From: a bacterium
Lineage (GTDB): Bacteria > Patescibacteriota > Minisyncoccia > UBA6257 > JAGOQP01
Reading direction: 5' to 3'
Assembly: GCA_021812345.1 (NCBI GenBank)
Contig: JAKANP010000005.1
Coordinates: forward strand, 1-56,359
Length of the DNA stretch: 56,359 nt
A program made the translations under genes and the position numbers. Shown here piece after piece: positions 4,478 to 52,449 of the stretch (its first letter is position 1; every line of letters begins with the position of its first letter). Below the pieces are notes generated by a model, which was given only the letters and a program-made list of their open reading frames with translations, made no database searches and was not told the origin of the DNA.

Positions 4478-4564
4478 GGAGAGGTGACTGAGTGGTCAAA
4501 GGTGCCTGACTCGAAATCAGGTGTGCGGGAAACTGCACCGTGGGTTCGAATCCCACCCTCTCCG
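4478..4564 (+). tRNA. tRNA-Ser(CGA)
   Basis: GGAGAGG/CCTCTCC acceptor, anticodon arm CCTGA-CT-CGA-AA-TCAGG, long variable arm, GGTTCGAATCC T-arm, G73. Confidence 0.95.
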
Positions 4565-4609
4565 CAATAAAACAAAAACTTCCGAAATGGAAGTTTTGTT
4601 TTATTGCGG
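4562..4609 (+). terminator. Long hairpin directly after tRNA-Ser
   Basis: CCGCAATAAAACAAAAACTTCC-GAAAT-GGAAGTTTTGTTTTATTGCGG. Confidence 0.6.
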
Positions 4610-4690
4610 TGTCTGTTTGAAAATATACGAACGGAACTGATGGGGGCTAACGATAACGGGCGTAACTCGCTTTGAATCGGGACGGAAAGG
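4606..4690 (+). repeat. Left arm of a perfect 85-bp inverted repeat
   Basis: GCGGTGTCTG...GACGGAAAGG is the exact reverse complement of 6036-6120. Confidence 0.95.
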
Positions 4691-4771
4691 CAAACTGCCA
4701 AAGAACCCGTCAAAAATGTCGGCTCGGACTTTATGGCTAAAAGCGGATTTTTATTGAAAAAGATAAATAAT

Positions 4772-4821
4772 TTTGATATCATAGAATTGAAGTTAATCTC
4801 TATACAAATAATGATATCAAA
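4772..4821. promoter_or_regulatory. Putative operator for the downstream HTH protein
   Basis: TTTGATATCAT (4772-4782) and ATGATATCAAA (4811-4821) form an inverted pair just upstream of the ATG at 4833. Confidence 0.45.
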
Positions 4822-4832
4822 GTATTGAAACT

Positions 4833-5030
4833 ATGGCAACAGTTGGCGAGAACATAAAAAGGGTACGCAATAAGCTCGGCTTGACCCAAGACGATTTAGT
4901 GAGAAAGTCTGGCGTAAAGCACACTACGCTCACCAAGATTGAGAGTGATGTTGTAATTAAGCCAAGTGTGCAAACGGTTGCAAATATCGCCAAGGCATTA
5001 GGCGTGCCAATGGAAGATTTATTAAAATAA
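4833..5030 (+). CDS. XRE/Cro-C1 helix-turn-helix regulator
   Basis: GENIKRVRNKLGLTQDDL...TLTKIE...PSVQTVANIAKALGVPMEDLL. Confidence 0.92.
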   Translation: MATVGENIKRVRNKLGLTQDDLVRKSGVKHTTLTKIESDVVIKPSVQTVANIAKALGVPMEDLLK

Positions 5031-5042
5031 TTTTAATAAAAT

Positions 5043-5492
5043 ATGGATAGTAAAAATTGGATTGGTGTTGGTATTGTAGTTGTCGTTTTAGTCGTAGGTG
5101 CCTATCTTGTTGGTCAAAGCTCAAACAATAAGTCACCAGTCGTTACTACTCCCACACCGATAAATAATACAACTACAGAGTCTGCGACAAATCCATATCC
5201 GACAGTTCAAACTCCAACACCTCAACCGTCATATACCGCTCCTAGTTATTATACGCCTATGACTTTTTCGACTGCTGTTGAAGCTCAGAGAAGTAGTTAT
5301 GTTAATGGTTGCACATCTTCGGGTGGAATGTGGGGTAAATGCAACTGCGCCTTTGACTATTTAATAAGTAATTATGGTCTTGTTTGGTTAATAAACGAAA
5401 ATGCTTACGTTAATGTTAATGGTGTAGCTTCTACCGAACTCCGTTCGGCGTCGTTAGATGCATATAAATACTGTTCGGTTTATAGCAATTAA
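5043..5492 (+). CDS. Membrane-anchored protein with a Pro/Thr linker and a Cys-containing C-terminal domain
   Basis: N-terminal TM helix, PT-rich stalk, YVNGC...CNCAFDY...C. Confidence 0.75.
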   Translation: MDSKNWIGVGIVVVVLVVGAYLVGQSSNNKSPVVTTPTPINNTTTESATNPYPTVQTPTPQPSYTAPSYYTPMTFSTAVEAQRSSYVNGCTSSGGMWGKCNCAFDYLISNYGLVWLINENAYVNVNGVASTELRSASLDAYKYCSVYSN

Positions 5493-5507
5493 CTCAAACA
5501 AACGTAC

Positions 5508-6029
5508 ATGAATAAAGAGGAACTCTCGGAGCTCATATTGTCCAATCCAAATGAAGCGTGGAGAAAAGTTCAAACTGGGGAAATTGATATTTCTCATGTG
5601 AATTTTAACGCTTTAAGGGCAAGGGCGAAGAATCAATTTCATATGACGGATCAACAAATCGAAGCAGTCGAATCTACTTACTGGGGTTCTTATTTAGTAG
5701 AGAGAAACATATCGGAAATGGTTTCTTCTATGGAAAAGGCACTTGGCAACACAGATATAGTTGACGATATGTTAGGTCGTTTAACTTTCGGAGATAAAAT
5801 CTCACTAATGAACGATAGATATAACAAAGGAGGACAACTTAAACCATTCATAAGTATGGCTTGGAAAGTTAATCAGTTAAGAAATGATATGGCACATGGT
5901 CGGTTTGGTAATCTCAAATACAACGGCATTGATTTATCCGATAGAAAAGGTCAATTTAAGTTCTTGATTGATTTAGTAACCGCCTTTATGGAATCGGCTA
6001 ACAACATTAAAACCCAAAATAAAAAATGA
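5508..6029 (+). CDS. Putative HEPN-domain protein (MtlR-like)
   Basis: LTFGDKI followed by the RxxxxH motif RNDMAH in a predicted helical protein. Confidence 0.6.
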   Translation: MNKEELSELILSNPNEAWRKVQTGEIDISHVNFNALRARAKNQFHMTDQQIEAVESTYWGSYLVERNISEMVSSMEKALGNTDIVDDMLGRLTFGDKISLMNDRYNKGGQLKPFISMAWKVNQLRNDMAHGRFGNLKYNGIDLSDRKGQFKFLIDLVTAFMESANNIKTQNKK

Positions 6030-6035
6030 AATCGT

Positions 6036-6120
6036 CCTTTCCGTCCCGATTCAAAGCGAGTTACGCCCGTTATCGTTAGCCCCCATCAGTTCCGTTCGTA
6101 TATTTTCAAACAGACACCGC
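6036..6120 (-). repeat. Right arm of the perfect 85-bp inverted repeat
   Basis: CCTTTCCGTC...CAGACACCGC. Confidence 0.95.
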
Positions 6121-6148
6121 CTTCGCTCGCCGAAGCGAGCTACGGCGG
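6117..6148. repeat. REP-like palindrome
   Basis: CCGCCTTCGCTCGCCGAAGCGAGCTACGGCGG; related to 48945-48973 and 52130-52160. Confidence 0.7.
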
Positions 6149-6186
6149 ACGCAGTCCGCAAGTAGTTCGCGAAGGAGAGAATAATT

Positions 6187-6423
6187 ATGTATACAGTTTA
6201 TATTTTAAAGTGTGATGATGGCGATCTATATACTGGTTGTACTGAAGACATTGATAATAGGTTAAACCGGCATAGTAGTGGACATGTTCCGGCTACTGCC
6301 GGGAGATTACCAGTTAAACTTATTGCTTATACAGTTTTTGAAAATAAATACAAAGCATTTGAATTTGAAAGATATTTAAAATCTGGTTCTGGTCGAGCAT
6401 TTATTAAAAAACATTTTTTATAG
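6187..6423 (+). CDS. Small stand-alone GIY-YIG nuclease
   Basis: VYILKC...YTGCT...RLNRH...FERYLKSGSGR. Confidence 0.92.
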   Translation: MYTVYILKCDDGDLYTGCTEDIDNRLNRHSSGHVPATAGRLPVKLIAYTVFENKYKAFEFERYLKSGSGRAFIKKHFL

Positions 6424-6481
6424 TGAGCGACGTGAGATTTTTACCCTCTCCGCAATAAAATAGAACCACAGCAAAAATTTT

Positions 6482-6841
6482 ATGAATTCAAAACAATCAA
6501 TCATCAAATCCAAGAAAAATATATCCACAACAAAGAAAAAAATCTCCGGAGGAGTGGCGCATGATTTACCCTCCGATTTAAAAAAATCTTTAGCTTCGGA
6601 TGCAAAAGCATTATCTGCGTGGGAAAATATCACGCCGCTTGCAAGAAATGAATGGATTTGCTGGACTATCTCTGTCCAAAAAATTGAAACAAGAAACGAA
6701 CATATCAAAAGAGTAATAAAAGAACTCAAAGAAGGCATGCGCCGGCCTTGTTGCTGGCCCGGATGTCCTCATCGCAGACCGAAAGCGGCAAAGTGGTTTA
6801 AATATTTGCCTGACGAATCCAATCGTAAAATAAAAAAATAA
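6482..6841 (+). CDS. YdeI/OmpD-associated family protein
   Basis: LPSDLKKSL...WENITPLARNEWICW...RPCCWPGC. Confidence 0.8.
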   Translation: MNSKQSIIKSKKNISTTKKKISGGVAHDLPSDLKKSLASDAKALSAWENITPLARNEWICWTISVQKIETRNEHIKRVIKELKEGMRRPCCWPGCPHRRPKAAKWFKYLPDESNRKIKK

Positions 6842-6911
6842 AGAACATCGCAATAAAAAATATTATCTGCGGTGTTTTTTTATCATTAATTTTATCTTAT
6901 AATCATAATAT

Positions 6912-8117
6912 ATGATTCAAAACAGCAATCAGCCCAAAAATCATGATGTTTTTTATGTGGGCTTATTAAGTTTTTTTGGAGGAATCGGACAGGATATTTT
7001 TGTACCGGTCTTGCCTCTCTATCTAACTCTGGTTTTGGGATTTGATAAAACTTTTGTTGGAACTACAGAAGGGCTCGTTTCCGCAAGTGCCGCCATATTT
7101 GCGGTTGTCGGAGGTTATTTTTCGGATAAGTGGAAAAAACAAAAATCTCTTATTTTTTCCGGATATTTACTTTCCATGATTTCCAGGTCATTGTTGGCTG
7201 TAATTACTTCAGGGTTGGGGGTAGTCGGTCTGCGCTTGGGGGATGGAATCGGTAAGGGAGTGAAAGATCCGCCCAAAGATGTTTTGGTTGCGGGAGATTC
7301 TAAAAAAACAAGAGGAAGAAGTTTTGGCATTGTCCGTATGTTGGACACGCTTGGTTCTGTTGTTGGGCCGTTAATTCTTTTTTTACTACTCTATTTTTTT
7401 AAAGACAACCCCCATGTTTATCATTATGTTTTGATTTTTTCTGCCGTTCCGCTGATTGCGACTTTGTACATTACTGCAGCCAAACTTAAAGATTATTCCT
7501 ATGTTCGGCCGAATCAGGAATTGGAGCACTCAAATAACAAGCTTTCCGGTAAACTTCCAAAATCTTTCTTTTTGTTTTTGGTGATATCTTTAGTTTTTAC
7601 TTTAGGGAACTCATCGGACGCTTTTTTGATTTTGAGAGCTCAAGGAGTTGGATTTTCCATAATATTGATTCCTATAGTTATAGCTTTGTTTAATTTGGTA
7701 TATGCCGGAGTATCGGTTCCGTTTGGAATTCTTTCGGATAAAATCGGAAGGGCTCCAACTCTTCTTATCGGTTGGGCGGTCTATGTCTTGACTTATTTTG
7801 GATTCGCTTATGTGCCTCATCCGGCGATGATTTGGGTTCTGTATGCTTTATACGGAGTATATTTTGGAGCAACGTGGGGAGTGGCGAAGGCATTTTTAGC
7901 TGATATTGTCGGTCAAGAATTTAGAGGGAGGGCATTCGGGATTTATGGAACCACCATCGGCGTGGCGACGTTTTTTGCCAGTTTAATTGCCGGTTTTTTG
8001 TGGGATAAGTTCGGAGCTCAAGCGCCATTTTATTTTGGCGCCGGGATGGCGGCTTTGGCGGCGCTACTTTTGGTTTCTTTTTCAAAAAAATTAAAATCGG
8101 TTCAACAGGAAATATAA
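6912..8117 (+). CDS. MFS transporter
   Basis: About 12 TM segments, GYFSDKW and GILSDKIGR motif-A copies. Confidence 0.9.
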   Translation: MIQNSNQPKNHDVFYVGLLSFFGGIGQDIFVPVLPLYLTLVLGFDKTFVGTTEGLVSASAAIFAVVGGYFSDKWKKQKSLIFSGYLLSMISRSLLAVITSGLGVVGLRLGDGIGKGVKDPPKDVLVAGDSKKTRGRSFGIVRMLDTLGSVVGPLILFLLLYFFKDNPHVYHYVLIFSAVPLIATLYITAAKLKDYSYVRPNQELEHSNNKLSGKLPKSFFLFLVISLVFTLGNSSDAFLILRAQGVGFSIILIPIVIALFNLVYAGVSVPFGILSDKIGRAPTLLIGWAVYVLTYFGFAYVPHPAMIWVLYALYGVYFGATWGVAKAFLADIVGQEFRGRAFGIYGTTIGVATFFASLIAGFLWDKFGAQAPFYFGAGMAALAALLLVSFSKKLKSVQQEI

Positions 8118-8120
8118 AAA

Positions 8121-8816
8121 ATGACTTTATTTTTACTTATTATTTGGGCGATTGTGATTTCTTTGATAACGTTAAGCGGAAGCTGGTATGTAAAAAAATA
8201 TCAAAAACCGGACCTTCTAATCGCCTTGTATGTGACATTTGTTGTCGTTGCTCAAATTTTAGCGGCAAAAATATCGGAATTTAATCTTGGATTTGCGGTA
8301 TTTTATGTTCCTTCGGGAGTGATTGTTTTTTCCGTAACTTATTTATTGACCGATATTATTAACGAAAGATTCGGACAAAAAGAAACCCACATGGCGATTT
8401 TCATCGCTTTTATCTCGCAGGTGGCGATGGTTATATTTTTGTGGATTGGAAATAAAATGACGCCCGCTCCATTTTGGAATTTACAGCAAACCTGGTCTTA
8501 TGTTTTTGATTTAATACCCAGAATAACTCTTGCCAGTTGGACAGCGTTTTTGATTTCGGAAAATTTTGACGCCATAGTTTATGCTTGGTTTAAAAAAATA
8601 ACCAAAGGAAAACATTTGTGGATGAGAAACTCTTTAAGTTCTTTGCCAGCTTTGTTTTTGGACAGCGTTATTTTTATATCAATAGCGTTTTGGGGAGTTG
8701 CGCCCGTACTGCCTCTTATTGTCGGACAAATTGTGATAAAATGGATTATCGGACTGATCGACATTCCGTTCATGTATGCCAACAGAAAAATTATGTCGAT
8801 TCAAAATGGAAAATAA
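8121..8816 (+). CDS. Queuosine precursor transporter (YhhQ/VUT family)
   Basis: QILAAKI, YLLTDIINERFG, RITLAS, HLWMRN, DSVIF motifs. Confidence 0.85.
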   Translation: MTLFLLIIWAIVISLITLSGSWYVKKYQKPDLLIALYVTFVVVAQILAAKISEFNLGFAVFYVPSGVIVFSVTYLLTDIINERFGQKETHMAIFIAFISQVAMVIFLWIGNKMTPAPFWNLQQTWSYVFDLIPRITLASWTAFLISENFDAIVYAWFKKITKGKHLWMRNSLSSLPALFLDSVIFISIAFWGVAPVLPLIVGQIVIKWIIGLIDIPFMYANRKIMSIQNGK

Positions 8817-8822
8817 AATTTT

Positions 8823-9638
8823 ATGAAAATCAAAAGAAAAAAAATAGGACTTGCGCTTGGCGGGGGAGGATCAAAAGGCTTTGCTCACATCGGAGTGATT
8901 AAGGTTTTGAAAAAAAATAATATCCCGATTGATTTTATCACCGGAACCAGCATAGGCGCTTTGGTTGGAGGATTTTATGCGGCAAGTGAAGATCCGGAAT
9001 ATCTTGAAAGTGTGGCCTCAGGGTCAAGCTCGGGTAAGTTTATATCTTTGATGACGGAATTTACCGGCGGCAGAGGCGGGATTGTCGGCGGAGAAAAGGT
9101 TCTTAATTTTTTGAGTGAAGGGCTTGATGGAATTGATTTTAAAGATTTAAAAATTCCTCTTGCCGTGACAGCAACGGAATTAAATTCCGGAGAAACTGAA
9201 TATTTTGAAAAAAGCGGAGATGTCGCCCAGGCGATTCGCGCCAGCATTTCTTATCCTCCGATATTTTCTCCGTATAAAATAAAAAATAAATTATATGTTG
9301 ACGGAGGACTTTCCTGCCAAGTTCCGGCGCAAAAAGCGCGCTTGATGGGCGCCGATCTGGTAATTGCCGTTAATTTGGAAGATGAATATGTGTTAAATAA
9401 AAAAGTATTTGAAAAAGAATCAATTATGACAAGTACTTATAGCGTATTTAATGCCTCCATTAAAATACTTGTTAAAAAAGTTGCCGAATATGATATCAAA
9501 GAAGCCGACATTGCTTTAAATTTGCCGGTTGGAAGATTTAAAACCTGGAGTGATTTTGGGAGAGCCAAAGATTTGATAAAAATAGGAGAAGAATTTACCA
9601 AAAAGAATATAAAAAACATTAAAAAAGCGCTGTTATAA
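8823..9638 (+). CDS. Patatin-like phospholipase
   Basis: GGGGSKG, GTSIG and DGG motifs. Confidence 0.92.
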   Translation: MKIKRKKIGLALGGGGSKGFAHIGVIKVLKKNNIPIDFITGTSIGALVGGFYAASEDPEYLESVASGSSSGKFISLMTEFTGGRGGIVGGEKVLNFLSEGLDGIDFKDLKIPLAVTATELNSGETEYFEKSGDVAQAIRASISYPPIFSPYKIKNKLYVDGGLSCQVPAQKARLMGADLVIAVNLEDEYVLNKKVFEKESIMTSTYSVFNASIKILVKKVAEYDIKEADIALNLPVGRFKTWSDFGRAKDLIKIGEEFTKKNIKNIKKALL

Positions 9639-9653
9639 TCAGCGCTTTGTTTT
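9624..9653 (+). terminator. Intrinsic terminator
   Basis: AAAGCGCTG/CAGCGCTTT stem followed by a T-rich tail. Confidence 0.55.
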
Positions 9654-9766
9654 AGTGTTTTTATAGTGAGATTTCCACAGGTTGTCTTATGTTCTGTGGT
9701 ATAATTTAATCAGTTTAATATTTAGTTTGAGTATATTTTTGTATAAAAATTAATATATAAAAAAAG

Positions 9767-12700
9767 ATGAAAAATATTTTTTATTTGTTTTTCAAAAGAT
9801 TTGTAATGGTCGCGTTTTTTTCGTTATTTCTAATCGGTTTTTTATTTTCCGCTCAACATATTTATGCTGTTGACGGATCGGGATCCGCTGTTGTGGCGCC
9901 CGGTTCTGCCAATGCCGGTTCAACAGGGGGGACTTATGTTTTTACTTTTACCGCTGCCGAAGCAATGAACAGTGGCGAAGTATCGATTTCTACCGCTCCG
10001 GGGTGGAGCGCGATGCAGGGAGTTTCGGGAACTGCCGGCTACACGACTGTTGCTTCCACCGGATTGACGGCTAACGTAGAAGACAACGCCGATTCTTTGA
10101 GCGGATGGTCAGCCGGGACGGCTTGCTTGAATGGATTATCTTCCGATACTTTAAATTATCATGAGGGTTTGGGCTCAATTTTATGTTCAACCGGAGACCA
10201 AAATACGGGTCAAGTTTTTTATAAAAATATTTCTTCTCAAAATTGGTCGTCTTACACTAAAGTTGGATTTTGGATAAAAGTCGGGAAAAATATAAGTTCA
10301 GGCAATTTAAGATTTCTTTACGACGATAATAATAATTTGGCCAGTCCGATTGCAAGGATAAACCTTCCGGCAATAACCGCAAATACTTGGACGTTTGTAA
10401 ATTTAAGTCTTTCCGGTACAAGAACTTCTGTTTTAAGTTACGGTTTTGAAATAAATAATAATACTAATTTAGACAATACTACAATAAATATTGACGATAT
10501 TTTACTTGGCCCAGGAAGCCCGGTTTTTGTAAATGGCATCGCTCATGTAAGACTGTTAACTCTTTCTTCCGGACAAACAGTGACATTTAATTATGGTTTT
10601 GGAGGAGGAACCAGCGGAGCATCGGCTCCTTTGGTTGGTCAAGTGTCAACCTTTTCAACTCAAACAAGAACTTCCGATTCCGGTGTTTTAACTAATATAT
10701 CAACTTCTCCGAAAATAACCGTTAATAATCCCGTTCCCGCCATTTTGTCTGTTTCTCCAACTTCAACGATAGCCGGTGGAACGCAATTCACGCTTACGGT
10801 GAATGGGTCAAATTTCAATGCTTCATCTTCCGTTAATTGGAATAGCTCTCCCAGAGTTACAAATTATATTTCATCAAATCAATTATCGGCTACAATTTTG
10901 TCTTCCGATATTGCGAATGAAGGGACTTCAACGGTGACGGTAGTCAATCCTACGCCCGGAGGAGGAACGTCAAATGGAGCAACTGTGACTTCGATTGCGA
11001 TTGCGGTTAAATTTGTCATATTGCCTCCGGGGAATGGAACGGTTGACGCTTCTGTTCCGGTAACTGTTCAAGCTCAAAAAAATGACGGATCAGTTGATCC
11101 TAATTTCAATAAAGGTGTTACATTGAATGTTAATGGTTCCGCTACCGGAGGAGGACTCTTGAGTTTTGCGAGTGGAGTGGCAACTACATCAATTTCCGAT
11201 CATGTAGCGCAAACAGTTCTATTGTCTTTGACGGATTCACAATCAACGGGACTTATTTCCACTTCAACACAAGAAATAATTTTTTCTCCGGGAGCAATAA
11301 CTCAATTTTCTTTGAATAATCCGGGTAATATGTATGCAAATACAAGACTTGGATATACGGTTACCAGAAAAGATCAATATTCAAATCCCGTTTCTGCTTC
11401 AACGTCGACGGTTTATCTTTACACTTCATCTACCAGCACCAATCATGGATTTTATAATGACCCATTGATTGGAAGTTATTTGAATTTTATTTCTATTCCC
11501 GACGGTTCCGCTAATGCTTCTTTTTGGTATTACGAAACTGTTCCGGGAAATTATTTAATTACGGCTTCCGATAATTCTTCCGCTCCCGATGGCGCGGCCG
11601 GCATCGCAGATGCGACTTCTTCAGTTGAAGTTATGCCGGTAGCGACTAAGTTTGTCATAATGCCTACTACTTCTACCACCGTGGATAATCCTATTACCGT
11701 TACGATACAAGCTCAAAAACCGGATGGGACCGTTGATGTTAATTATCAAAAAGGAGTTACTCTTGTTGTAAACGGTTCGGCTACCGGAGGGGGATTGGTA
11801 ACTATAGTTAATGGAGTGGGGACGATGAAAATTTCCGATACTGTTCCGGAAACCGTTCATTTGTCTCTTTCGGACACTCAATCAACCGGTCTTGATGTTT
11901 CTTCTTATCAGGATGTTTATTTTGGAGTCGGGGCCACGGCTCAATTTGTTTTGAGTCATCCGGTATCGATGGGCGCGGGCACCAGAGCGGCCTATACAAT
12001 AACCAGAAAAGATCAATTTGGAAATTTAACGACAAACGGAACCGGCACGGCCTATCTTTACAGCTCTTCTCCAAGTTTAAATAAAAAGTTTTATGATTCA
12101 GCTACCGCGGGAAATGTTATAACTTCAATTCAATTTCCCAATGGGCAATCGTCCGCTAATTTTTGGTATTACGACGATACTTTGGGAACTTGGACCATAA
12201 CCGGGTCGGATAACGCTTCATCGCCTGACGGTTCGGTTGGCATTCAAGATGCCGTTGATTCAATTATTGTAAATCCCGGTCCGGTCGCTTCTTTTTCTTT
12301 GAATAATCCGGGTGGAATGAGTGTTGGCACTTATCTTGAGTATTCGGTAACAAGAAAAGACCAATTCGGAAATCTTGTTACTTCTGGAATAACTCCCGTT
12401 TATCTTTACAGTAGCGCGAATGATACGAGCACCGGATTTTATCTTTCTTCCGGCGGGGGAACTCCAATAAAATCGGTATCAATTTCAGATTCCAGTTCCA
12501 CCGCTAATTTTTGGTATTATGAAAATGTTCCGGGTAATTATACTTTAACCGCTTCCGATAATTCTTCCGCTCCCGATGGAGCCACCGGCATAGCGGATGC
12601 GACTGTTTCTGTAAATGTCATGGCGGCTCCGATTGTTGCCACAAAATTTGTTATTTTACCGACAGCTACGGGAACGGTTGATTCTCCGATTACCGTTACC

Positions 12701-42353: not shown

Positions 42354-42418
42354 TTTTTACAACTGGAAAACATTAAAAGAAAAAGGTCGAAAGTTTTGAA
42401 AGTAAAATCAGAAATCTC

Positions 42419-44176: not shown

Positions 44177-44392
44177 GAGTCGTGAGGTTTTATTATTTGT
44201 TCGGAGCTTGATTTTTGCGATGAGTTTGGATATTATTAATCTAAAGCTGGAGGCTGTCATGAAGATGGTCTTCTAAATATAATTAAAACTTTCGCTATTA
44301 AGCGAAACAGTCAAATTCTGTCTTTTGGAATGGCTTGCCAAATTGAAACGGAATTGGCTGCGTCAAAAACGCAGCGTTGTTTTATAAAGAAT

Positions 44393-45139: not shown

Positions 45140-45144
45140 TAAAA

Positions 45145-45585: not shown

Positions 45586-45664
45586 ATTAAAGAATAATCA
45601 AGGGTGACAATTTGAAAGCGTGCATGTATAATAATAATTGAAATTTTTTGATTTAAAATAAAAT

Positions 45665-46030
45665 ATGTCTTTCTTTATATTGGAAATATTTTTTTTCTTG
45701 AGTCTCGGGGCAATCGTGTTTTTGTTTGTCAAAAAATTGCCTTATGTGAGCGATATTCCCCAAAAGGAATTGAATGCCGGCAAATTAAGAAACAGCATAT
45801 TGAATTCGCAGTGGGTGGACAAATTAGACAGCAGGTTTGTTGATTTTTTATCCAAATGGCTCAGAAAAATGAAATTAGCGGTAATGCGTTTGGATAATTA
45901 TGTTTCCAGACATATTGAAAATATAAAACACCGAACTTCCAGAGAAAAAACAACTCAGAATATATTGAAAGAAATAGAAAGCGACGAAAAAATAGAAAAA
46001 AGGGAAGAAGGTGTTGAAAATAAAGATTAG
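45665..46030 (+). CDS. Hypothetical membrane-anchored protein
   Basis: N-terminal TM helix, charged tail. Confidence 0.7.
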   Translation: MSFFILEIFFFLSLGAIVFLFVKKLPYVSDIPQKELNAGKLRNSILNSQWVDKLDSRFVDFLSKWLRKMKLAVMRLDNYVSRHIENIKHRTSREKTTQNILKEIESDEKIEKREEGVENKD

Positions 46031-46036
46031 TTTTTT

Positions 46037-46107
46037 GCCAATGTAGCTCAGCTGGTAGAGCAACGCTAAAGTGTAGGTCACCGGTTCAAATCCGGTAGGT
46101 GGCCTCA
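46037..46107 (+). pseudogene. Chimeric pseudo-tRNA-Thr lacking the anticodon
   Basis: First 28 nt identical to tRNA-Thr(GGT) at 46789; 3' half resembles tRNA-Thr(TGT); anticodon loop deleted; acceptor mispaired. Confidence 0.8.
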
Positions 46108-46165
46108 GAAGCAATTAGATGACCACATTATTAACAGATAATGTGGTTTTTGGTATAATAAAAAT

Positions 46166-46753
46166 ATGAAAATATCAAAAAAATTATTAGAGCAACTTTA
46201 TTTAAAAGAAAAATTATCCGTATCTCAAATAGCTAAGAAACTTAATCGTTCCATAAGCGGAATTAATTATTGGATTGAGATATATAAGATTAAGAAAAGA
46301 ACCATAAGTGAAGCGATTTATTCAAGACATAATCCTAAAGGAGATCCGTTTGTTTTTGTAAAGCCAAAAAATCAAAAAGAATCTGAATTATTTGGGTTAG
46401 GAATCGGCTTATATTGGGGAGAGGGAACAAAAGCTAATAAAAATACAGTAAGAATAGGAAATTCGGATGTTAATATCATTAAAGTGTTTATAAAATTTCT
46501 TAAAATCTTCTTTGGGGTTTCTAAAGAAAAACTAAAGTTCCAATTGCATTTATTTGATGATTTGAATATAAGTGATGCCGAAAAATATTGGCTGGAGAAT
46601 CTTTTTATTAATAAAAATCAATTATACAAAACAATCGTCACAAAAAGTGGTTCTCTAGGAACATATAAGCATAAAAATAAATATGGTGTGATAACATTAT
46701 ATTACGGCAATACTAAATTAAGAAATATTTTAGTAAATATGTTGCCAAAGTGA
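46166..46753 (+). CDS. HTH plus single LAGLIDADG-like endonuclease-family protein
   Basis: N-terminal HTH (LSVSQIAKKLNRSISGINYW); LGIGLYWGEGTK followed by IGNSD...IKVFIKFL. Confidence 0.65.
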   Translation: MKISKKLLEQLYLKEKLSVSQIAKKLNRSISGINYWIEIYKIKKRTISEAIYSRHNPKGDPFVFVKPKNQKESELFGLGIGLYWGEGTKANKNTVRIGNSDVNIIKVFIKFLKIFFGVSKEKLKFQLHLFDDLNISDAEKYWLENLFINKNQLYKTIVTKSGSLGTYKHKNKYGVITLYYGNTKLRNILVNMLPK

Positions 46754-46788
46754 AAAAGTGATGATATTATTTATCTTGTAGAACTATT

Positions 46789-47050
46789 GCCAATGTAGCT
46801 CAGCTGGTAGAGCAACTCCATGGTGAATTTTTGCCCATTTCGACGGAAACGCCGAGACGAATCTCGAATTACGGTTAAAGGCCTTTCTCGGGTTAAGACC
46901 GTAGCGCTTTTGCGCTCGAACGACTGACAAGAGGAGCTAAACTTTTTTTAAAAGCATGCTCAATATACAGTCTAATCCTCTAATAGAGATTTTTTGAAAT
47001 AGAGGTATGAATGAAGGAGTAGGTCGTCGGTTCAATTCCGACCATTGGCT
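46789..47050 (+). tRNA. tRNA-Thr(GGT) interrupted by a group I intron (exons 46789-46824 and 47014-47050)
   Basis: The joined exons give GCCAATG/CATTGGC acceptor, ACTCC-AT-GGT^AA-GGAGT and GTCGG-TTCAATT-CCGAC. Confidence 0.9.
46825..47013 (+). ncRNA. Compact group I intron, 189 nt, after position 36 of tRNA-Thr
   Basis: Exon ends in U, intron ends in G; P7 GACTG/CAGTC in AACGACTGAC...AATATACAGTCT; ACGGTT/GACCGT stem. Confidence 0.82.
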
Positions 47051-47062
47051 CTGATAAATTTT

Positions 47063-47108
47063 AAAAATAAAAAAACGCGGAGTATGTATAGTACCGCGTT
47101 TTTTATTT
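47063..47108. terminator. Bidirectional terminator between the convergent tRNA-Thr genes
   Basis: AAATAAAAAAACGCGG...CCGCGTTTTTTATTT. Confidence 0.65.
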
Positions 47109-47109
47109 G

Positions 47110-47182
47110 AGCCACCTCCCGGACTTGAACCGGGGACCTTCACTTTACAAAAGTGTTGCTCTACCAGCTGAGCTAAGGTGGC
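47110..47182 (-). tRNA. tRNA-Thr(TGT)
   Basis: GCCACCT/AGGTGGC acceptor; CACT-TT-TGT-AA-AGTG. Confidence 0.92.
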
Positions 47183-47460
47183 TTTCTCTTTTCAAACATC
47201 AATAATAAGACTTAAGATTTTATTATTCTGAAGTTTTATTATGTGGGTAGGGTGAGAGTCGGCCTCGCCTCTGTCGCTCGCCGTCGCTCGCGCCAGGGAC
47301 TGACCACCGCCTCGCGCGCTCGTCTTATGACTCGCGCATGCTCCGAGCGTTCGCCTCTCACTTGAAAGCCAAGCAGTTGGCTTTCTCTTTTCAAACATCA
47401 ATAATAAGACTTAAGATTTTATTATTCTGAAGTTTTATTATGTGGGTAGGGTGAGAGTCG
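47179..47460. repeat. 83-bp direct repeat (47179-47261 and 47378-47460) around a 116-bp GC-rich insert
   Basis: TGGCTTTCTC...GGTGAGAGTCG occurs twice and includes the tRNA-Tyr 3' end. Confidence 0.92.
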
Positions 47461-47527
47461 AACTCACGCGGGCACATTGGCCAACGGTTTTACAGACCGC
47501 CCTCGGCCCCTACGAGACTACCTACCC
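47443..47527 (-). tRNA. tRNA-Tyr(GTA) with an atypical D-arm
   Basis: GGGTAGG/CCTACCC plus A73; GCGGT-CT-GTA-AA-ACCGT; long variable arm; GTGAG-TTCGACT-CTCAC. Confidence 0.85.
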
Positions 47528-47652
47528 ATAAAGTATTTATTGCCGTATTTTTAGAATACCAAAATTTATCAATAAATCAAATATCTTGATTTTTATTTTG
47601 AGCTAATGTATTCTTTAAACATTAATTTCAGAAAGTATTTAAATTATAGATT

Positions 47653-47823
47653 ATGGCAAAATCAAAATTTAGCGAAAATTTAACAAAATTAAGATGTTCC
47701 GTTTGCAAGCGGATTAATTATAATACCCGAAAAAACAAAAAAACTTTTGAAGGAAAACTTGAACTTAAAAAATATTGCAGATGGTGTCGCGCTTCCACTA
47801 AACACGTTGAAGCAAAAAGATAA
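47653..47823 (+). CDS. rpmG: 50S ribosomal protein L33 (not in the ORF track)
   Basis: LRCSVCKRINYNTRKNKK...LELKKYCRWCRASTKHVE, 56 aa. Confidence 0.93.
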   Translation: MAKSKFSENLTKLRCSVCKRINYNTRKNKKTFEGKLELKKYCRWCRASTKHVEAKR

Positions 47824-47855
47824 TAAAATCCCGCTCAGAAAGAGCGGGATTTTTT
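47824..47855. terminator. Bidirectional terminator between rpmG and tRNA-Trp
   Basis: AAAATCCCGCTC-AGAAA-GAGCGGGATTTTTT. Confidence 0.75.
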
Positions 47856-47856
47856 G

Positions 47857-47927
47857 CGGGGACGCCAGGATTCGAACCTGGATACCTGGTTTTGGAGACC
47901 AGAGTCTTACCGTTGGACGACATCCCC
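47857..47927 (-). tRNA. tRNA-Trp(CCA)
   Basis: CTGGT-CT-CCA-AA-ACCAG; G73. Confidence 0.93.
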
Positions 47928-48012
47928 GTGGTTTGAATGTTCTTATTTTTATAGAATATATTAAAATACTAATTCTTTCAACACCATCTCATATTTGTTA
48001 TAATCAAAAGAT

Positions 48013-48672
48013 ATGAACTATTCAAATTCGGAATTGGTTGAAGAATTAACTGAGCTTGGATATTTAAAGTCGCAGTCTTTAATAGATTCTTTTTTGGCTA
48101 TTGATAGAAAAGATTTTGTGCCCGAATCTCTTTTGGAATTTGCTTATTACAACGAACCGCTTCCCATAGGCAATGATCAAACAATTTCTCAACCTTTAAC
48201 TGTTGCTTTTATGTTGGAACTTTTAGACTTGAAAGCGGGGGATAAGGTTTTGGAAATCGGTTCCGGTTCCGGATGGCAAACATCTCTTATAGCTAAAATG
48301 GTTGAATATAGCGGGGGAATTGCCGAAGATAAAGACGGACGTTACGGAGTAATATCTCTTGAGAGAATAGATTCTTTGGCTCAAATGGCGATAAACAATG
48401 TTTCCAAATACGGATTTGTAGAAAGGGGCGTAGTTAAAATTATAAATTTTGACGGAACAAAAGGATACGAAACAGAAGCGCCATTTGATAAAATAATCGC
48501 GTCTGCGTCGGGAAAAGAAATACCCCAGGCATGGAAAGATCAATTGGTTATTGGCGGAAAAATAGTCACTCCGGTAGAAGAAAGCATTGTTGTTTTGGAC
48601 AAAACTGGAAAAAATGAATTTCAAAAGAGAGAGTTTCACGGATTTGCATTCGTGCCGTTGATTTCCGGATAA
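48013..48672 (+). CDS. pcm: Protein-L-isoaspartate O-methyltransferase
   Basis: QTISQP, VLEIGSGSGWQ, APFDKI, FVPL. Confidence 0.92.
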   Translation: MNYSNSELVEELTELGYLKSQSLIDSFLAIDRKDFVPESLLEFAYYNEPLPIGNDQTISQPLTVAFMLELLDLKAGDKVLEIGSGSGWQTSLIAKMVEYSGGIAEDKDGRYGVISLERIDSLAQMAINNVSKYGFVERGVVKIINFDGTKGYETEAPFDKIIASASGKEIPQAWKDQLVIGGKIVTPVEESIVVLDKTGKNEFQKREFHGFAFVPLISG

Positions 48673-48944
48673 TTTATGATATTTTTTTGATATTTTTTAT
48701 TTGATTTTTATTTGTCAAGCATCTCACGATCGTAAGATACTTGACAATATTTTTAAGGCGTCACTTTTTGGTTGTTTTAGGTGTGTCAGTTTATATAATA
48801 ATTTGTTATTGACAGAATATTATTTTTATGCTATTATTTAGCAGGCTATAAAGCTGTTTTAGTACTTTGATACTAGATAATCAATCTCGATTGAATCGGG
48901 ATTGTGGGTGAATTGTGCAACTAACGACGTTGTTGGGACAACGA

Positions 48945-48973
48945 ACCCTCCTTCGCATAAAGCTACGGAGGGT
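48945..48973. repeat. REP-like palindrome
   Basis: ACCCTCCTTCGCATAAAGCTACGGAGGGT. Confidence 0.7.
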
Positions 48974-48987
48974 AAAAGGAGGATGAG

Positions 48988-49767
48988 ATGAAAAAGCACT
49001 TTGTTATGTTTATCGTCTTGTGCTTCGTCGTGCTCACGCTGAGCACGACCGGGGCGTTCGCTGAGAGCAACAGCGTGCCGATGTGCCGGCTGGGGGTCAA
49101 CCCGGTCGACACACACCGTCAGGTGGACTGGTCTACCCAGTGCACTCTGACGCTAACCTCGCCGCAAGTGGTGAGGATGGAGTCCGCGAGCGGCGACATC
49201 AGCACCTGTCGATTGGCTACGGGAACCTCCGTGGTCATCGACAAGGAGACGAGCAGGGCGGAGTACGTTCGTTTCTGCTCCAATCCTCTGCCGGATCATC
49301 CGTTTCTGTCAGGGCAACGGGATTGTGCCCCTCCAGCCACGGAGAGGGTGGTGGTGCAGACCGAACGGCCTGCGGCAGTCATCCACCAACCAACTGCTAC
49401 CGTCAGGATCTTCCACAACGGTCTGGACATTACCAATACGAAGGTGAAGCCCGGCACCGAGGTGGTGGTCGTGTGGGAGTCAACCCACGCGGATCAGTGT
49501 GTGGCACTGTCCGGTTTTGGGTTCATGACCAAGGGAGAACCCTTCGGTTCAGAGAGAGTCTCTCTGAATCAGAAGGGCCTCTACACGTACAGCGTACAAT
49601 GTCATGGCCCGGCTGGGTACGTCGTGAGCGAGGACGCCAACATCGCAGTCAAATCCAATCCCTGGGGTTGGATCGTTGGTGGCATCTTGCTGGCTATCGT
49701 CGCAGCCGCCGCCGGTGGTGGTGGAGGCCATCACTCGTCGGTTCGCCAAGGGCCGACCATTCCTTAG
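48988..49767 (+). CDS. GC-rich Cys-containing surface protein (signal peptide, Ig-like unit, C-terminal TM)
   Basis: AGGAGG SD; AFA signal cleavage site; WESTHADQC...YTYSVQCHGP unit; hydrophobic C-terminal helix. Confidence 0.75.
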   Translation: MKKHFVMFIVLCFVVLTLSTTGAFAESNSVPMCRLGVNPVDTHRQVDWSTQCTLTLTSPQVVRMESASGDISTCRLATGTSVVIDKETSRAEYVRFCSNPLPDHPFLSGQRDCAPPATERVVVQTERPAAVIHQPTATVRIFHNGLDITNTKVKPGTEVVVVWESTHADQCVALSGFGFMTKGEPFGSERVSLNQKGLYTYSVQCHGPAGYVVSEDANIAVKSNPWGWIVGGILLAIVAAAAGGGGGHHSSVRQGPTIP

Positions 49768-49967
49768 TTCTCTTGGGGATTGCGCGATGACATAAACGCA
49801 GGTTTTTAAATCCCGTTTATGCCGTCCGCAATCCCCGCCATCTTTTAGTGTTTAAAAAATATTTTTTGAAAATTAAAAGATAGCGATTCATATTTAAAAC
49901 ATCCGTTAACAAAGCGGGTGTTTTTTTATAAAAAATCGCCCAAGTAAATGGCGATTTTAAATTTTAA

Positions 49968-50351
49968 CTAAATCTTTTCCCAATAATATCCCGAATCGTC
50001 TTTTTTCCCAAAGTTGTTTTCTTTTTTAGCGCAATCATCACAGAAAAAATGATCTCCAGAAAATTGTGTGTGTCTTACCCAGATAGCCGGTTTGTCGCAC
50101 ATATCACATTTGATGCGTGTTTGGTGGGATTGATTAATGGTATTTTCAAGAGTTTCAAGAGTGTCTTTGATGTCTTCTATTCTATTTTTAATCTTCACTT
50201 CTATTGCATCGATTTCAATATCCGATGGGGGATTATATTTGTCAAAAAGGCGCAACACCATAGCCAATTCCTCTATCGTAAAGGCGGCAGCTTTTTGATT
50301 TTTAAATTCTCTTATCAATCGTTTGATTCTGACGCTCGTTATGTTATTCAT
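49968..50351 (-). CDS. Hypothetical protein with a coiled coil and a C-terminal zinc-finger-like motif
   Basis: AAGGAGG SD; CDMC...CDDC. Confidence 0.7.
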   Translation of the reverse strand: MNNITSVRIKRLIREFKNQKAAAFTIEELAMVLRLFDKYNPPSDIEIDAIEVKIKNRIEDIKDTLETLENTINQSHQTRIKCDMCDKPAIWVRHTQFSGDHFFCDDCAKKENNFGKKDDSGYYWEKI

Positions 50352-50573
50352 TTGAAACCTCCTTATGTGCTGATAAAATTATAATCTTGCATATTATCAA
50401 AAACAAGTTTTATTAGTTATGGTAATTGTTTGATATTGTGGATGTTAAAATTTTATTACTTATTAATTTGTAGCAGTCAATCAAGCGGGATTGTGAATAT
50501 CATTTTATTAGATTCATCTAAAATTTATTGTGTTAAATCATAATTTTAATCATAAAAGTAATATTTATTGCAT

Positions 50574-51779
50574 TTAATAAATTATATTAAATTCTTTTTT
50601 TAGATTCAAAATTCGGTCAAAAGACTCAATAATCCTTTGTTCTCTAATATTTCCATTTTTTACAGCATTAAAAATTATATCCCTTATTTTTAATGCCAGA
50701 TCTTTATCATATCCACTCGGACTGTCATTTGAAATCATTATCATGTCAATCCCCGCGTTTATGGATTTTATTACCGCATCGTCTAAATTATAATTTTTGC
50801 TTATGGCGCCCATTTGCATGTCATCGGAAATGATAACGCCGTCGAATCCGATTTGTTTTCTTAAAATGTTTTGTAAAAAAATCTTAGATAAAGTTGCTGG
50901 ATAATTTTCATCAACGTTTTTATTTATTACATGAGCAACCATAACTGCTTTAAGCAAGCCGTCATTATTTAAACCTTGATAGGGAAGCAGTTCTTCATCT
51001 TTGTAGGTATTTGTTATATCAACTTGTTCTTTGTGGCTATCTTCTGTCGCGCTTCCTTGGCCGGGAAAATGTTTTGCTACGGCAATAATATTATTTTTTT
51101 GCAAGTTTTTTATAAATAATTTTGAATTATAAAGAACTTCGCTTGCATCTGAAGAAAAAGAACGCCCCAAAGCGCCGATGATTGGATTTTGAGGGTTTAT
51201 GTTTATATCAACTACAGGCGCAAAATCCATGTTAAATCCCAAATTCTTTAATTCCGTTGCCAAAATCATTGATTCTTTATAAGTAGTTTGCAAAGTTTTA
51301 TCCTGCCCCATTTTTTCTTCGGAAATGATGGGTAAAAATCCATATTTTGGTTTTAAGCGATTTACATTTCCACCTTCGGCGTCAACCGCAATAAATAATG
51401 GCGTAGTAGAGTAATTTTGAATGTCTGAAATGAGTTTTTTTGTTTGATCATAATTTATAATATTTCTTGGAAAACTATTTGATGGAAAGTCATAATCAAA
51501 TAAAATAACACCACCAGGTTTAACATCTTTTATCATTTTGTATGTGTCGGAATTCTTTAAAACTCTAGTCTCTCGAAATCCAATCATTATCATTTGCCCT
51601 ATTTTATCTTTAAGTTCATTGTCTGATAATACGACTTGTCTTTTAAAAATATTTTTTGTTTCTGAGGCATCTCCGATTCCATTATTGTTTGGTTTAAATA
51701 TATTTAAATACATAAAAATTCCGCCAATTGTAATGGCGCAGAAAACACAAATTTTTAACAACAATTTAACCAATTTCAT
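50574..51779 (-). CDS. nagZ: GH3 beta-N-acetylhexosaminidase
   Basis: DAEGGNVNRL, APVVD, KHFPGQG...DSH, ISDDMQMGAI; N-terminal TM. Confidence 0.85.
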   Translation of the reverse strand: MKLVKLLLKICVFCAITIGGIFMYLNIFKPNNNGIGDASETKNIFKRQVVLSDNELKDKIGQMIMIGFRETRVLKNSDTYKMIKDVKPGGVILFDYDFPSNSFPRNIINYDQTKKLISDIQNYSTTPLFIAVDAEGGNVNRLKPKYGFLPIISEEKMGQDKTLQTTYKESMILATELKNLGFNMDFAPVVDININPQNPIIGALGRSFSSDASEVLYNSKLFIKNLQKNNIIAVAKHFPGQGSATEDSHKEQVDITNTYKDEELLPYQGLNNDGLLKAVMVAHVINKNVDENYPATLSKIFLQNILRKQIGFDGVIISDDMQMGAISKNYNLDDAVIKSINAGIDMIMISNDSPSGYDKDLALKIRDIIFNAVKNGNIREQRIIESFDRILNLKKEFNIIY

Positions 51780-51901
51780 AATTTGTTTATTTTAACAAAA
51801 TAAGACATATTTTAAAAAATTTTATTAATCGGAAAATTATTTATCTAAGAATAATGATAATTGTTGTGGATGTTAAAATTTTATTGCGTTATAATTAAAT
51901 T

Positions 51902-52063
51902 ATGACAAAATCGGTTGCAATCATAATTTATTTTTTAACCATGGTAGCGGTGATTGTCGGTGCTGATTTGTTGTTTTTTAAAAATCGTTTTTGGGAACGG
52001 CTTATTGCGAATATTGGCATCGTATTATTATTTATTGCTTTTTATTTCGGGTTTATAAAATAA
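51902..52063 (+). CDS. Small two-TM protein (not in the ORF track)
   Basis: MTKSVAIIIYFLTMVAVIVGADLLFFKNRFWERLIANIGIVLLFIAFYFGFIK, 53 aa. Confidence 0.6.
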   Translation: MTKSVAIIIYFLTMVAVIVGADLLFFKNRFWERLIANIGIVLLFIAFYFGFIK

Positions 52064-52099
52064 AAACCACATACATTTATCTTAACATGTACGTTTTAG

Positions 52100-52377
52100 C
52101 TTGCACTGAGCTTGCCGAAGTGCTCCGGTGGTTATCCTTCGCTAAAGCTTCGGATAACGCGGTAGGAATCTCACGTTGTCGCTTGGTTCGACTTCGCTCA
52201 CCACAAGCCGCTCTTCTCAACACGCCCTGTCTACTGGTAGGCAGAGCTCGGTTTCTTGACGCTCCTTTAGAGCTTTTTCCTACACGGGAAACTACAAGTT
52301 TCCCGACCCCTTCCGAAGGTTCTCGCACTCCACACAAAGCAAAAAGAAAAAACGCCACAAGGACGTTTTTCTTTTTG
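52100..52377 (-). repeat. GC-rich element downstream of tRNA-Asn with nested REP-like palindromes and an interrupted tRNA 3'-end copy
   Basis: TGCTCCGGTGGT (52121-52132) and GGTAGGA (52161-52167) match the tRNA-Asn end; four palindromic units. Confidence 0.75.
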
Positions 52378-52449
52378 CTCCGGTGGTAGGACTCGAACCT
52401 ACAACCATCGCCTTAACAGGGCGCCGCTCTACCATTGAGCTACACCGGA
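52378..52449 (-). tRNA. tRNA-Asn(GTT)
   Basis: TCCGGTG/CACCGGA acceptor, CGCC-CT-GTT-AA-GGCG, G73. Confidence 0.93.

Follow-up and report, generated by a model that had tools for sequence, protein, structure and literature searches.

What are the short inserts that separate several tRNA genes of a small bacterial genome from copies of their own 3' ends? The question is raised by a stretch of 56,359 nucleotides (contig JAKANP010000005.1 of GenBank assembly GCA_021812345.1, here called the window) from a bacterium of the Patescibacteriota (Minisyncoccia; UBA6257; JAGOQP01), in which the genes for tRNA-Ser, tRNA-Tyr and tRNA-Asn are each followed by such an arrangement. All three duplications lie where an earlier reading of the DNA (the original prediction) had placed them, and they belong to a family of non-coding units whose anatomy, tRNA linkage, distribution, near-identity within a genome and lack of an encoded enzyme were established by observation. 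We give an even chance to the reading that these units are integrase-free, non-autonomous selfish repeat elements tied to the tRNA T-arm, within a superfamily across the Patescibacteria. In our reading the units multiply or are homogenised within a genome and are quickly gained and lost, and the tRNA is left intact because its 3' end is duplicated, not interrupted.

The genome that contains the window (G000, of which the window is contig C23) comprises 725,195 bases on 27 contigs with about 36% G+C, and its completeness by marker genes is 100%. ARAGORN reports 41 tRNA genes in this genome, eight of them in the window, and a tmRNA gene follows smpB on contig C3, both being recognised by reading the sequence. 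For each of the 42 tRNA and tmRNA genes, the 8-mer consisting of the acceptor 3' strand and the discriminator was sought within 450 nt downstream. A perfect copy was present behind 10 of the 42 genes, upstream of none (0/42) and, as reverse complement, downstream of none (0/42), while the 8-mers of other tRNAs used as a control gave 9/1716. Beyond these ten genes, tRNA-Ser(cga) has its copy at +1877, the copy of tRNA-Ala(tgc) is broken by a contig end and several other genes have hairpin-interrupted or mismatched copies; by eye, about 17 of the 42 genes carry units.

Anatomy, distribution and turnover of the units

The units are non-coding, about 100-200 nt long, and lie usually beyond the terminator of the tRNA and always on its strand. 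Aligned units of the form that we call type A share a core with the order GGGGTCGGG, hairpin 1, CCCGTGTAGGAAA, hairpin 2 (AAACCGAGGGTTT), hairpin 3 and GACGTGAGATTCC. The left arm is the reverse complement of the T-loop and the 3' strand of the T-stem, reading for instance GAAGGAATCGAA for Lys and GGAATTGCA for a Met tRNA with the T-loop TGCAATT. The right arm starts with GTGAGATT, the G53-N60 segment of the tRNA with positions 55-56 changed to GA: GTGA replaces G53-C56, and from position 57 the unit repeats the tRNA directly, up to and including the acceptor 3' strand and the discriminator, with positions 57-60 tracking the local T-loop (GTTCGAGT becomes GTGAGAGT, GTTCAATC becomes GTGAAATC and GTGCAATT becomes GTAAAATT). 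What follows GTGAGATT is the T-stem 3' strand, the acceptor 3' strand, the discriminator, usually CA and sometimes the whole terminator, as in the tails of about 50 nt at Lys-ttt in G000 and at Trp in genome G002. Among 79 units defined by the covariance model introduced below, 68 have the GA form at positions 55-56, 5 have an intact T-loop and 6 have something else. We read the two arms as pairing in a closing helix with two G.A/A.G mismatches that come from the 55-56 change; when folded as a single strand, this helix would rebuild the T-arm duplex of the tRNA gene apart from positions 55-56.

AGCGAC had been proposed as the motif of the family. It precedes only 3 of 12 tail copies, exactly those of the three window loci, and is not what the units share; what they have in common is GTGAGATT, a version of the T-loop altered at positions 55-56 in which the local tRNA dictates positions 57-60. 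The expectation of a motif enriched ahead of tRNA-end repeats held for GTGA[GA]A, present in 7 of the 12 stretches of 60 nt that precede tail copies (about 0.017 expected per site), and failed for AGCGAC. The longer string CGAYG..GTGARA is present in 5 of the 12 stretches (about 0.001 expected).

A second form, type B, has arms as in type A and a core that, in the Tyr unit, runs from a 5' hairpin with loop AACTGCTT over the left arm and GGAGCATG to a hairpin and CGCGAGNCGG. A strict type B pattern matches in 13 of 101 relatives, the genomes of the same order, and the reversed control pattern matches once; 19 of the 21 matches are real units, 15 having a same-strand tRNA gene at most 111 nt upstream and 2 following tmRNA ends. 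Type C (6 examples) is a natural rearrangement of type A in which CCCCGTGTTGGAAA...hairpin 2 is placed ahead of GGGGGTCGGGGG and the GGGG/CCCC stem is kept with covariation (GCCCCCG/CGGGGGC versus ACCCCCG/CGGGGGT). Conserved unpaired motifs of the units are GGGGTC, GTGTAGGAAA, AAACCGA and GACGTGAGATT.

The covariance model of the type A core, which is the commonest one, is called R1 and was made from 4 units and a manually supplied structure, which was used after RNAalifold on a MAFFT alignment of 4 units had given a poor structure with mis-registered hairpins; later alignments were fitted to R1. The model finds 7 units in G000 at E < 1e-3. Type A units stand there behind the tRNA genes Pro-cgg (two in tandem), Ala-tgc, Leu-taa, Lys-ttt, Glu-ctc and Asn, and weaker or rearranged forms at Pro-ggg, Glu-ttc and Lys-ctt and as a second unit at Lys-ttt. 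Type B units are found at Gln-ttg, Ser-tga, Leu-gag, Leu-tag, Leu-caa, Tyr and the tmRNA gene, and Ser-cga has a tail remnant.

Among the 101 relatives, R1 matched in 44 genomes with 1-18 matches each (0 to 18 per genome over the whole set) and in 15 of the 19 genomes of the same family. In a phylum sample of 150 other genomes it matched in 10, and all five loci checked had a preceding tRNA whose tail was copied. Type A matches in the relatives have a same-strand tRNA or tmRNA gene at most 450 nt upstream in 33 of 41 cases. Their tails contain a perfect 8-mer in 25 of these 33 and at least seven of the eight positions in 30, compared to 0/1040 perfect copies in the control, and in 15 of the 33 the left arm agrees with the inverted T-loop/T-stem at no fewer than nine of ten positions (control 1.8%), tracking even rare T-loops, e.g., TGCAATT or TTCAATC. 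A search of species-representative genomes with the tRNA-independent pattern GGGGTCGGG...AAACCG...GTGAGATTCC led to 106 stretches, with 81 matches in 80 of those loci. A tRNA or tmRNA gene was located 0-150 nt upstream on the same strand for 62 of the 81 matches and on the opposite strand for 0, and 8 of the other 19 lie at most 200 nt from the edge of the locus. The 62 tRNA-linked matches include 51 with a perfect copy of the acceptor 8-mer and represent 19 isotypes, and the public contigs that carry a pattern-matched element are almost all labelled Patescibacteria or candidate phyla radiation (CPR), many of them as Saccharibacteria, in agreement with the original prediction of the lineage. 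Behind tRNAs of 19 isotypes and tmRNA, there are thus small elements that duplicate the tRNA 3' end without encoding an integrase and that are built around the T-arm, as had been proposed; recognition by T-arm structure instead of sequence would be a further assumption of that proposal. In 41 of the 62 cases a terminator-like hairpin separates the unit from its tRNA, and this speaks against co-transcription as a necessity; a hairpin of this kind follows the tail in 26.

That such units arise from faulty assembly or from chance similarity is, in our judgement, next to impossible. Being repeats, they do break contigs (the end of contig C14 overlaps the start of C24 within the type A unit behind tRNA-Ala(tgc)), but the same architecture is present in the 106 stretches from independently assembled genomes, and the tail-copy controls (0/1040 perfect; 9/1716) rule out chance. 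Per-run contigs bridge the Tyr unit: contigs from four DNA runs of one study span this unit and both of its repeat copies with zero mismatches and cover most of the Asn unit, a support that is not independent, as the runs may include the source sample. Contig joints with skips of 257 or 169 nt, the two sides of which measure only about 30 nt, probably stem from tRNAs of other organisms and were not used.

With the arms excluded, mean core identity was 0.679 for units at different tRNAs of one genome (253 pairs), 0.635 for units that share the tRNA but not the genome (28 pairs) and 0.609 when genomes and tRNAs both differed (927 pairs). The nearest core neighbour is mostly a unit at another tRNA of the same genome, with 93-99% identity. 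In genome G012, six tRNAs are each followed by a unit; between TCGAATAGAG and GTGAGATTCC these units are near-identical, and the differences are in the arms. Tandem copies occur at Pro-cgg in G000 and at Ala-tgc in G002, two units in each case, and the Glu-ctc unit of G000 (C6:13221-13367, locus L004) is a mosaic with the Pro-type tail GGCGGTCCGAC, which suggests recombination between units at different tRNAs. The occupation of a given tRNA also varies between sister species. In G002, Asn is followed by a compact unit of type A, and Ser-cga by two units of type B without GIY-YIG gene, where G000 has a GIY-YIG gene with a type A tail; the Tyr-Thr spacer has only a relic in G002 and measures 2-3 nt in G012; behind Trp, G001 and G002 have a unit and G000 has none.

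Spread of such elements could be accomplished by host homologous recombination, for which the tRNA gene would supply homology on the left and the tail copy on the right. After DNA uptake, recombination would place the unit behind a naive copy of the same tRNA and leave that tRNA unharmed, and a step in which the folded hairpin mimics its target may take part. Unequal crossing-over between repeats would give rise to tandem arrays and also to deletions.

Pairing within the units and a possible RNA

In two model-fitted alignments of 41 and 86 sequences, 86% and 89% of the cells, respectively, are paired, compared to 71% and 74.5% in shuffles and 36-67% with slid partners; alignments fitted in this way favour the structure of the model. 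Double changes were encountered at 24/29 and 23/29 pairs, and the column pairs with the highest mutual information are modelled Watson-Crick pairs, among them the outer pairs of the closing helix, which are specific to the tRNA. For single units, z-scores of the minimum free energy range from -2.9 to -4.5. There is no wobble bias, G-T plus T-G amounting to 35 versus 49 for A-C plus C-A and, in the second alignment, to 59 versus 66, and in this respect the units do not look like a typical RNA family. As G-T is not commoner than A-C, the folded molecule may be RNA or single-stranded DNA, and of either strand.

A number of these and other observations weigh against selfish spread. The helices covary, type C rearranges type A yet keeps the same pairing and core motifs are kept across classes of the phylum, which together show selection on the folded strand itself, and such selection is also expected of a functional RNA. 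The tRNAs Pro-cgg, Glu-ctc, Ala-tgc, Lys-ctt and Asn carry units in more than one genus each, in several genera overall, and the persistence of units in genomes of about 0.7 Mb would be unexpected for junk DNA. In G012, the Lys-ctt unit combines a seemingly young core with a tail unlike that of its resident tRNA (CCTTTCGGGCGGAC versus CCTGGTGGGCGGAC), and the copies at Ser-cga in G002 read CCCAC where the tRNA has CCCTC and keep the T-stem of the G000 tRNA. Tails unlike the resident tRNA indicate that gene conversion among old residents, and not new insertions, may explain part of the core identity. The comparison with G002 and G012 did not yield a clean pair of empty and filled alleles with otherwise identical flanks, and no mobility enzyme and no intermediate of excision or insertion was found.

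These observations lead to a different explanation, which we regard as possible but clearly weaker than an even chance, namely that the unit is a structured non-coding RNA tied to its tRNA. It would be a product of read-through at the terminator, folded as a multi-helix junction with a closing helix that imitates the T-arm; its free 3' tail would correspond to the acceptor 3' strand, and its left arm could pair with the real T-loop. Such an RNA might act as a new small ribozyme or, by mimicking a tRNA half, in tRNA processing, repair or sensing. Compensatory changes in every helix, modelled pairs at the top of the mutual information, conserved unpaired motifs and the low z-scores are all in agreement with such an RNA, as are the conservation of the family across the phylum and an orientation that is strictly that of the tRNA (62 same-strand, 0 opposite). 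The GA change at positions 55-56 is specific and recurrent (68/79 units) and would create tandem G.A pairs, a common RNA motif, and type C reorders the blocks and keeps the GGGG/CCCC stem. Small ribozymes are likewise known to show block rearrangement with the stem kept. However, a terminator-like hairpin with a T run precedes the unit in 41 of the 62 cases, space for a promoter is lacking, G-U is not in excess over A-C, and the pair counts come from alignments fitted to the model. Also, many units have extra hairpins within the tail copy, and sister species differ in presence, copy number and core type at the same tRNA, so that no particular tRNA needs its unit. Finally, no Rfam family matches: with Rfam 15, a scan of the window at gathering thresholds returned tRNAs only, and scans by E-value, run on the Asn unit and on 7 loci that carry units of type A, B or C, gave nothing above noise. 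A hammerhead, considered for the strings CTGATGAG/CTGACGAG of two type B2 units, was rejected, as by eye there was no fit to the GAAA and stem order and Rfam did not match.

The selfish-element and the functional-RNA readings are not exclusive. We would only tentatively propose that the family represents one of two things: either a mobile, protein-less element, of which the closing hairpin rebuilds the tRNA T-arm target with a fixed 2-nt mismatch and which is copied behind any tRNA by host enzymes, the tRNA tail being duplicated in the process, or small structured RNAs or ribozymes of a new class that occur in rearranged forms (A, C) behind tRNA genes all over the Patescibacteria and have arms that mirror the T-arm and the acceptor strand of each tRNA.

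The window loci and the search for an enzyme

The features of the three window loci are collected below.

Table 1. Features at the Ser, Tyr and Asn loci of the window.
Feature	Position	Strand	Evidence
tRNA-Ser(cga), intact	4478-4565	+	ARAGORN; Rfam tRNA, 58.7 bits
Direct repeat ACCCTCTCCGCAATAAAA, 18 nt	4555-4572 (copy 1); 6443-6460 (copy 2)	+	Repeat D1
Terminator-like hairpin, 16-nt arms, begins inside tRNA-Ser 3' end	4562-4609	+	Inverted repeat I2; sequence
Nested element of 1515 bp that ends in perfect inverted repeats of 85 nt (4606-4690, 6036-6120)	4606-6120	+	Repeat I1, 100% complementary
GC-rich module CTTCGCTC...GAGCTACGG..., upstream of GIY-YIG ORF	6121-6163	+	Sequence
GIY-YIG open reading frame (ORF), 78 aa, catalytic domain only	6187-6423	+	Pfam, E 5.6e-14; PF01541 genome search
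Remnant type A right arm TGAGCGACGTGAGATTTTT, T-stem part degraded (TTT for CCC)	6424-6442	+	Sequence; motif scan; type A consensus
tRNA-Thr	47109-47182
Direct repeat, 83 nt	47378-47460 (copy 1); 47179-47261 (copy 2)	-	Repeat comparison
Type B unit	47262-47385	-	Sequence; type B pattern match 47307-47344; contigs of runs X1 and X4 over 47232-47407, 0 mismatches
tRNA-Tyr(gta), intact	47442-47527	-	ARAGORN
Copy of acceptor 3' strand, discriminator and CA, CACCGGAGCA	52121-52130	-	Sequence
GC hairpin, 30 nt, between T-stem copy and acceptor copy	52131-52160	-	Sequence; like hairpins in other units
Type A unit, expanded variant, ~170 nt	52162-52328	-	R1 match, 27.5 bits, E 1.6e-4 in genome search
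Terminator-like hairpin and T run, between tRNA-Asn and unit	52339-52376	-	Sequence
tRNA-Asn(gtt), intact	52377-52449	-	ARAGORN; Rfam, 71.3 bits

The Asn unit reads GGGGTCGGG, hairpin 1, CCCGTGTAGGAAA, further hairpins and ...AGCGACAACGTGAGATTCCTAC, and its tail copy is split into GATTCCTACC (52161-52170) and CACCGGAGCA (52121-52130). GC hairpins of 20-30 nt are a feature of many tail copies. They are of two kinds, CCTGCCTRCCGGTAGGCAGG and GCCCGYCCG...GAAGGMGGG, sit where T-stem and acceptor meet or close by (in the window at 52131-52160 and in G000 on C5, C6, C13, C19, C21 and C24) and shorten the direct repeat with the tRNA.

The Tyr duplication had been predicted to be about 18 nt long; it is in its expected place, and 83 nt were found. 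Its two copies are separated by an insert of 116 nt, and copy 2 consists of the 3' part of the T-loop, the 3' strands of T-stem and acceptor, the spacer and the first 4 nt of tRNA-Thr. This insert also differs from the others in its core, which is of type B: a 5' hairpin with loop AACTGCTT and the left arm GTGAGAGGCGAAC, which equals the inverted T-arm in 12 of 13 positions, are followed by a GGAGCATG-hairpin-CGCGAGGCGG core and a GC-rich 3' part that ends in ...GAGGCGAGGC. The repeat takes in 8 nt of the unit because the type B 5' hairpin belongs to the unit, and it may be the remnant of a tandem array.

At the Ser locus, the repeat is composed of the final 11 nt of tRNA-Ser and 7 nt of its trailer. 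Pfam searches with all five ORFs of the insert returned HTH_3, GIY-YIG and OmdA and no match for two. The 1515-bp element is a secondary insertion outside the unit family. It encodes a helix-turn-helix protein of the XRE type at 4833-5030 (HTH_3, E 1.9e-14), its ORFs 5043-5492 and 5508-6029 have no Pfam match, and no recognisable transposase was found by Pfam among its ORFs. Pieces related to this element are present in other genera (G013, G005). Modules like the GC-rich one upstream of the GIY-YIG ORF flank other GIY-YIG ORFs and tRNA ends in G000. In several genomes, modules of the form CTTCGCTC...GAGCTACGGAG or ACTTCGGCAAGCTCAGTGCAAGC adjoin tRNA ends, units and GIY-YIG ORFs (window 6121-6163 and 52098-52120; C3, C9, C11 and C19 of G000; loci L041 and L110), and on C3 the module is duplicated together with the terminator, with one copy on each side of a GIY-YIG ORF. 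We treat the GIY-YIG gene of the Ser locus as selfish in its own right, a cassette that inserted into a type A unit or next to one; the locus would then comprise a decayed type A unit, a later GIY-YIG cassette and the 1.5-kb element with inverted-repeat ends. The description of the units as landing pads for cargo fits this locus, where further inserts have collected.

GIY-YIG was also put forward as the nuclease of the whole family. In such a scheme, a homing endonuclease would cut the DNA of the T-loop, repair would copy the element in and the short units would be leftovers that have lost the ORF; the altered T-loop of the copy could then be an immunity change. We consider this improbable. 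The arrangement at the Ser locus, with the GIY-YIG ORF directly before a type A tail and the tRNA-end copy, would suit it, and small GIY-YIG ORFs are also located after tRNA-Gly(ccc), after the tmRNA gene and its unit and inside a 23S gene, and a same-strand tRNA lies 52-129 nt upstream at 6 of 29 GIY-YIG loci in the relatives. However, GIY-like ORFs were absent from the 420 nt upstream of all 64 other distinct type A tails, and type A tails were absent from the 400 nt downstream of all 29 GIY-YIG loci. The expected co-occurrence of units and GIY-YIG genes was not borne out either, as 99 of the 101 relatives have GIY-YIG genes regardless of units, including 57 genomes without type A matches (Spearman 0.25, a value not corrected for kinship). 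Also, the intact tRNA upstream of every unit keeps an unchanged T-loop, and as the presumed target persists there, insertion would not protect it. The ORF inside the 23S gene (C4:30418-30633, locus L017; Rfam LSU 443 bits) is bracketed by a 20-nt inverted repeat and matches what the main text of a survey reports on rRNA insertions of the CPR (PMC11270868).

Could the repeats instead be attL/attR scars, left by integrase-borne islands or prophages in tRNA genes that were later deleted down to a few hundred bases? Direct repeats do flank the inserts (18 nt at Ser, 83 nt at Tyr, split at Asn; 10/42 genes), and tmRNA is a target too. Williams (2002) reportedly described the signature of integration into tRNA genes. 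A direct repeat from the T-loop to the tRNA end or past it is the classical form of this signature according to one report (PMC9897764). Nevertheless, we think this very improbable. Behind unrelated tRNAs in hundreds of genomes the inserts have in common a conserved core of about 100 nt, complete with covarying hairpins, which is not expected of remnants left by random deletion, and att sites offer nothing that corresponds to the inverted left arm. No integrase is encoded in the inserts or next to them (Pfam on the ORFs of the window inserts), and the only tyrosine recombinase of the genome, the single PF00589 match at C16, is Xer-like.

In G000, Y1 transposase (PF01797) had no match at E <= 0.01 and TnpB had none, and an origin from IS200/IS605 elements or TnpB guide RNAs was rejected. 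An autonomous, transposase-bearing parent was not seen in the loci examined, the genome-wide searches being for Y1_Tnp and TnpB and not for DDE families. Reverse transcriptases occur in 45 of the 101 relatives, and 19 of the 44 unit-bearing genomes have no match, for which reason retro-mobility by way of the genome's reverse transcriptases was judged unlikely. At two reverse transcriptase loci of G000 (C13:100-1800 and C11:1-2500), a small adjacent ORF and a repeated C-terminal segment of the neighbouring large protein were noticed, and one such locus lies just 3' of tRNA-Pro(cgg) and its two units. Presumably these are diversity-generating retroelements.

Some tRNA genes were observed apart from the units. 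A tRNA-like sequence at 46037-46104 (+) of the window was detected by Rfam only (39.3 bits) and missed by ARAGORN; it is Thr-like with a short anticodon arm, and the matching place in G002 has a normal tRNA-Thr(ggt). tRNA-Phe was not found in G000 by ARAGORN.

Relation to known systems

Known islands and prophages in tRNA or tmRNA genes are kb-sized, with 9-23 kb for those described in PMC9897764, and encode a tyrosine or serine integrase. Like them, the units have a repeat that extends from the T-loop to or beyond the tRNA 3' end, leave the tRNA intact and also use tmRNA; in contrast, they measure 100-200 bp, encode nothing, possess a conserved hairpin core and an inverted T-arm copy on the other side, and sit behind many tRNAs of one small genome. 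Miniature inverted-repeat transposable elements (MITEs) make a short target duplication of fixed length and have a transposase-bearing parent, and REPINs, formed from repetitive extragenic palindromic (REP) sequences, depend on RAYT (Y1) transposases. The units resemble MITEs and REP/REPIN sequences in being short, non-coding, multi-copy, hairpin-forming, near-identical within a genome and patchy, with ends like inverted repeats. They differ from MITEs in a repeat of about 17 to 83 nt that starts at a fixed point in the T-loop and ends variably, and from both in their target-specific arms, in that no parent element was seen and in the absence of a Y1 transposase from G000.

In the attC sites of integrons and in attP(+) of the CTX phage, two inverted segments fold to a recombination-site duplex with central mismatches; the CTX attP(+) hairpin mimics the chromosomal target, and host Xer carries out the recombination. 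By analogy, the arms of a unit pair and covary and would equal the T-arm duplex apart from positions 55-56. The helix of about 12 bp is, however, shorter than a full recombinase core site, and the mimicked site is the T-arm of a tRNA gene. A group I intron is known from a tmRNA T-loop. For the CPR, insertion sequences in rRNA genes, some with GIY-YIG ORFs, have been described in a report whose main text contains 0 occurrences of tRNA (PMC11270868). Such insertions and the tmRNA intron are, like the units, selfish inserts at structural RNA genes, often bracketed by stems and in some cases with GIY-YIG ORFs; unlike the units, which lie past a complete tRNA and its terminator, they interrupt the RNA gene and leave the transcript. 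Literature searches gave no description of units of this kind, although the supplementary tables of PMC11270868 and PMC9897764 might list tRNA-flanking fragments. We regard the family as a variant of tRNA-targeting elements or of small non-autonomous repeats, and that its mechanism or its RNA would be new in kind appears to us the less probable outcome, at somewhat under one chance in three.

The genomes of Patescibacteria are among the smallest and most streamlined in bacteria. Despite this streamlining, up to a third or more of the tRNA genes of a genome carry units, the core of which is conserved across classes, and the units account for contig breaks and for spurious 'partial tRNA' calls in these genomes. 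If selfish, they would represent a route by which tRNA genes are colonised without integrase and without harm to the tRNA, and a protein-less element with a hairpin that rebuilds its target would, if true, be a new way for DNA to target tRNA genes. If they are RNAs, a widespread class of tRNA-matched RNA would exist in the uncultured majority of bacteria. With a covariance model, a clear anatomy and hundreds of examples at hand, the question becomes testable in cultivable Saccharibacteria.

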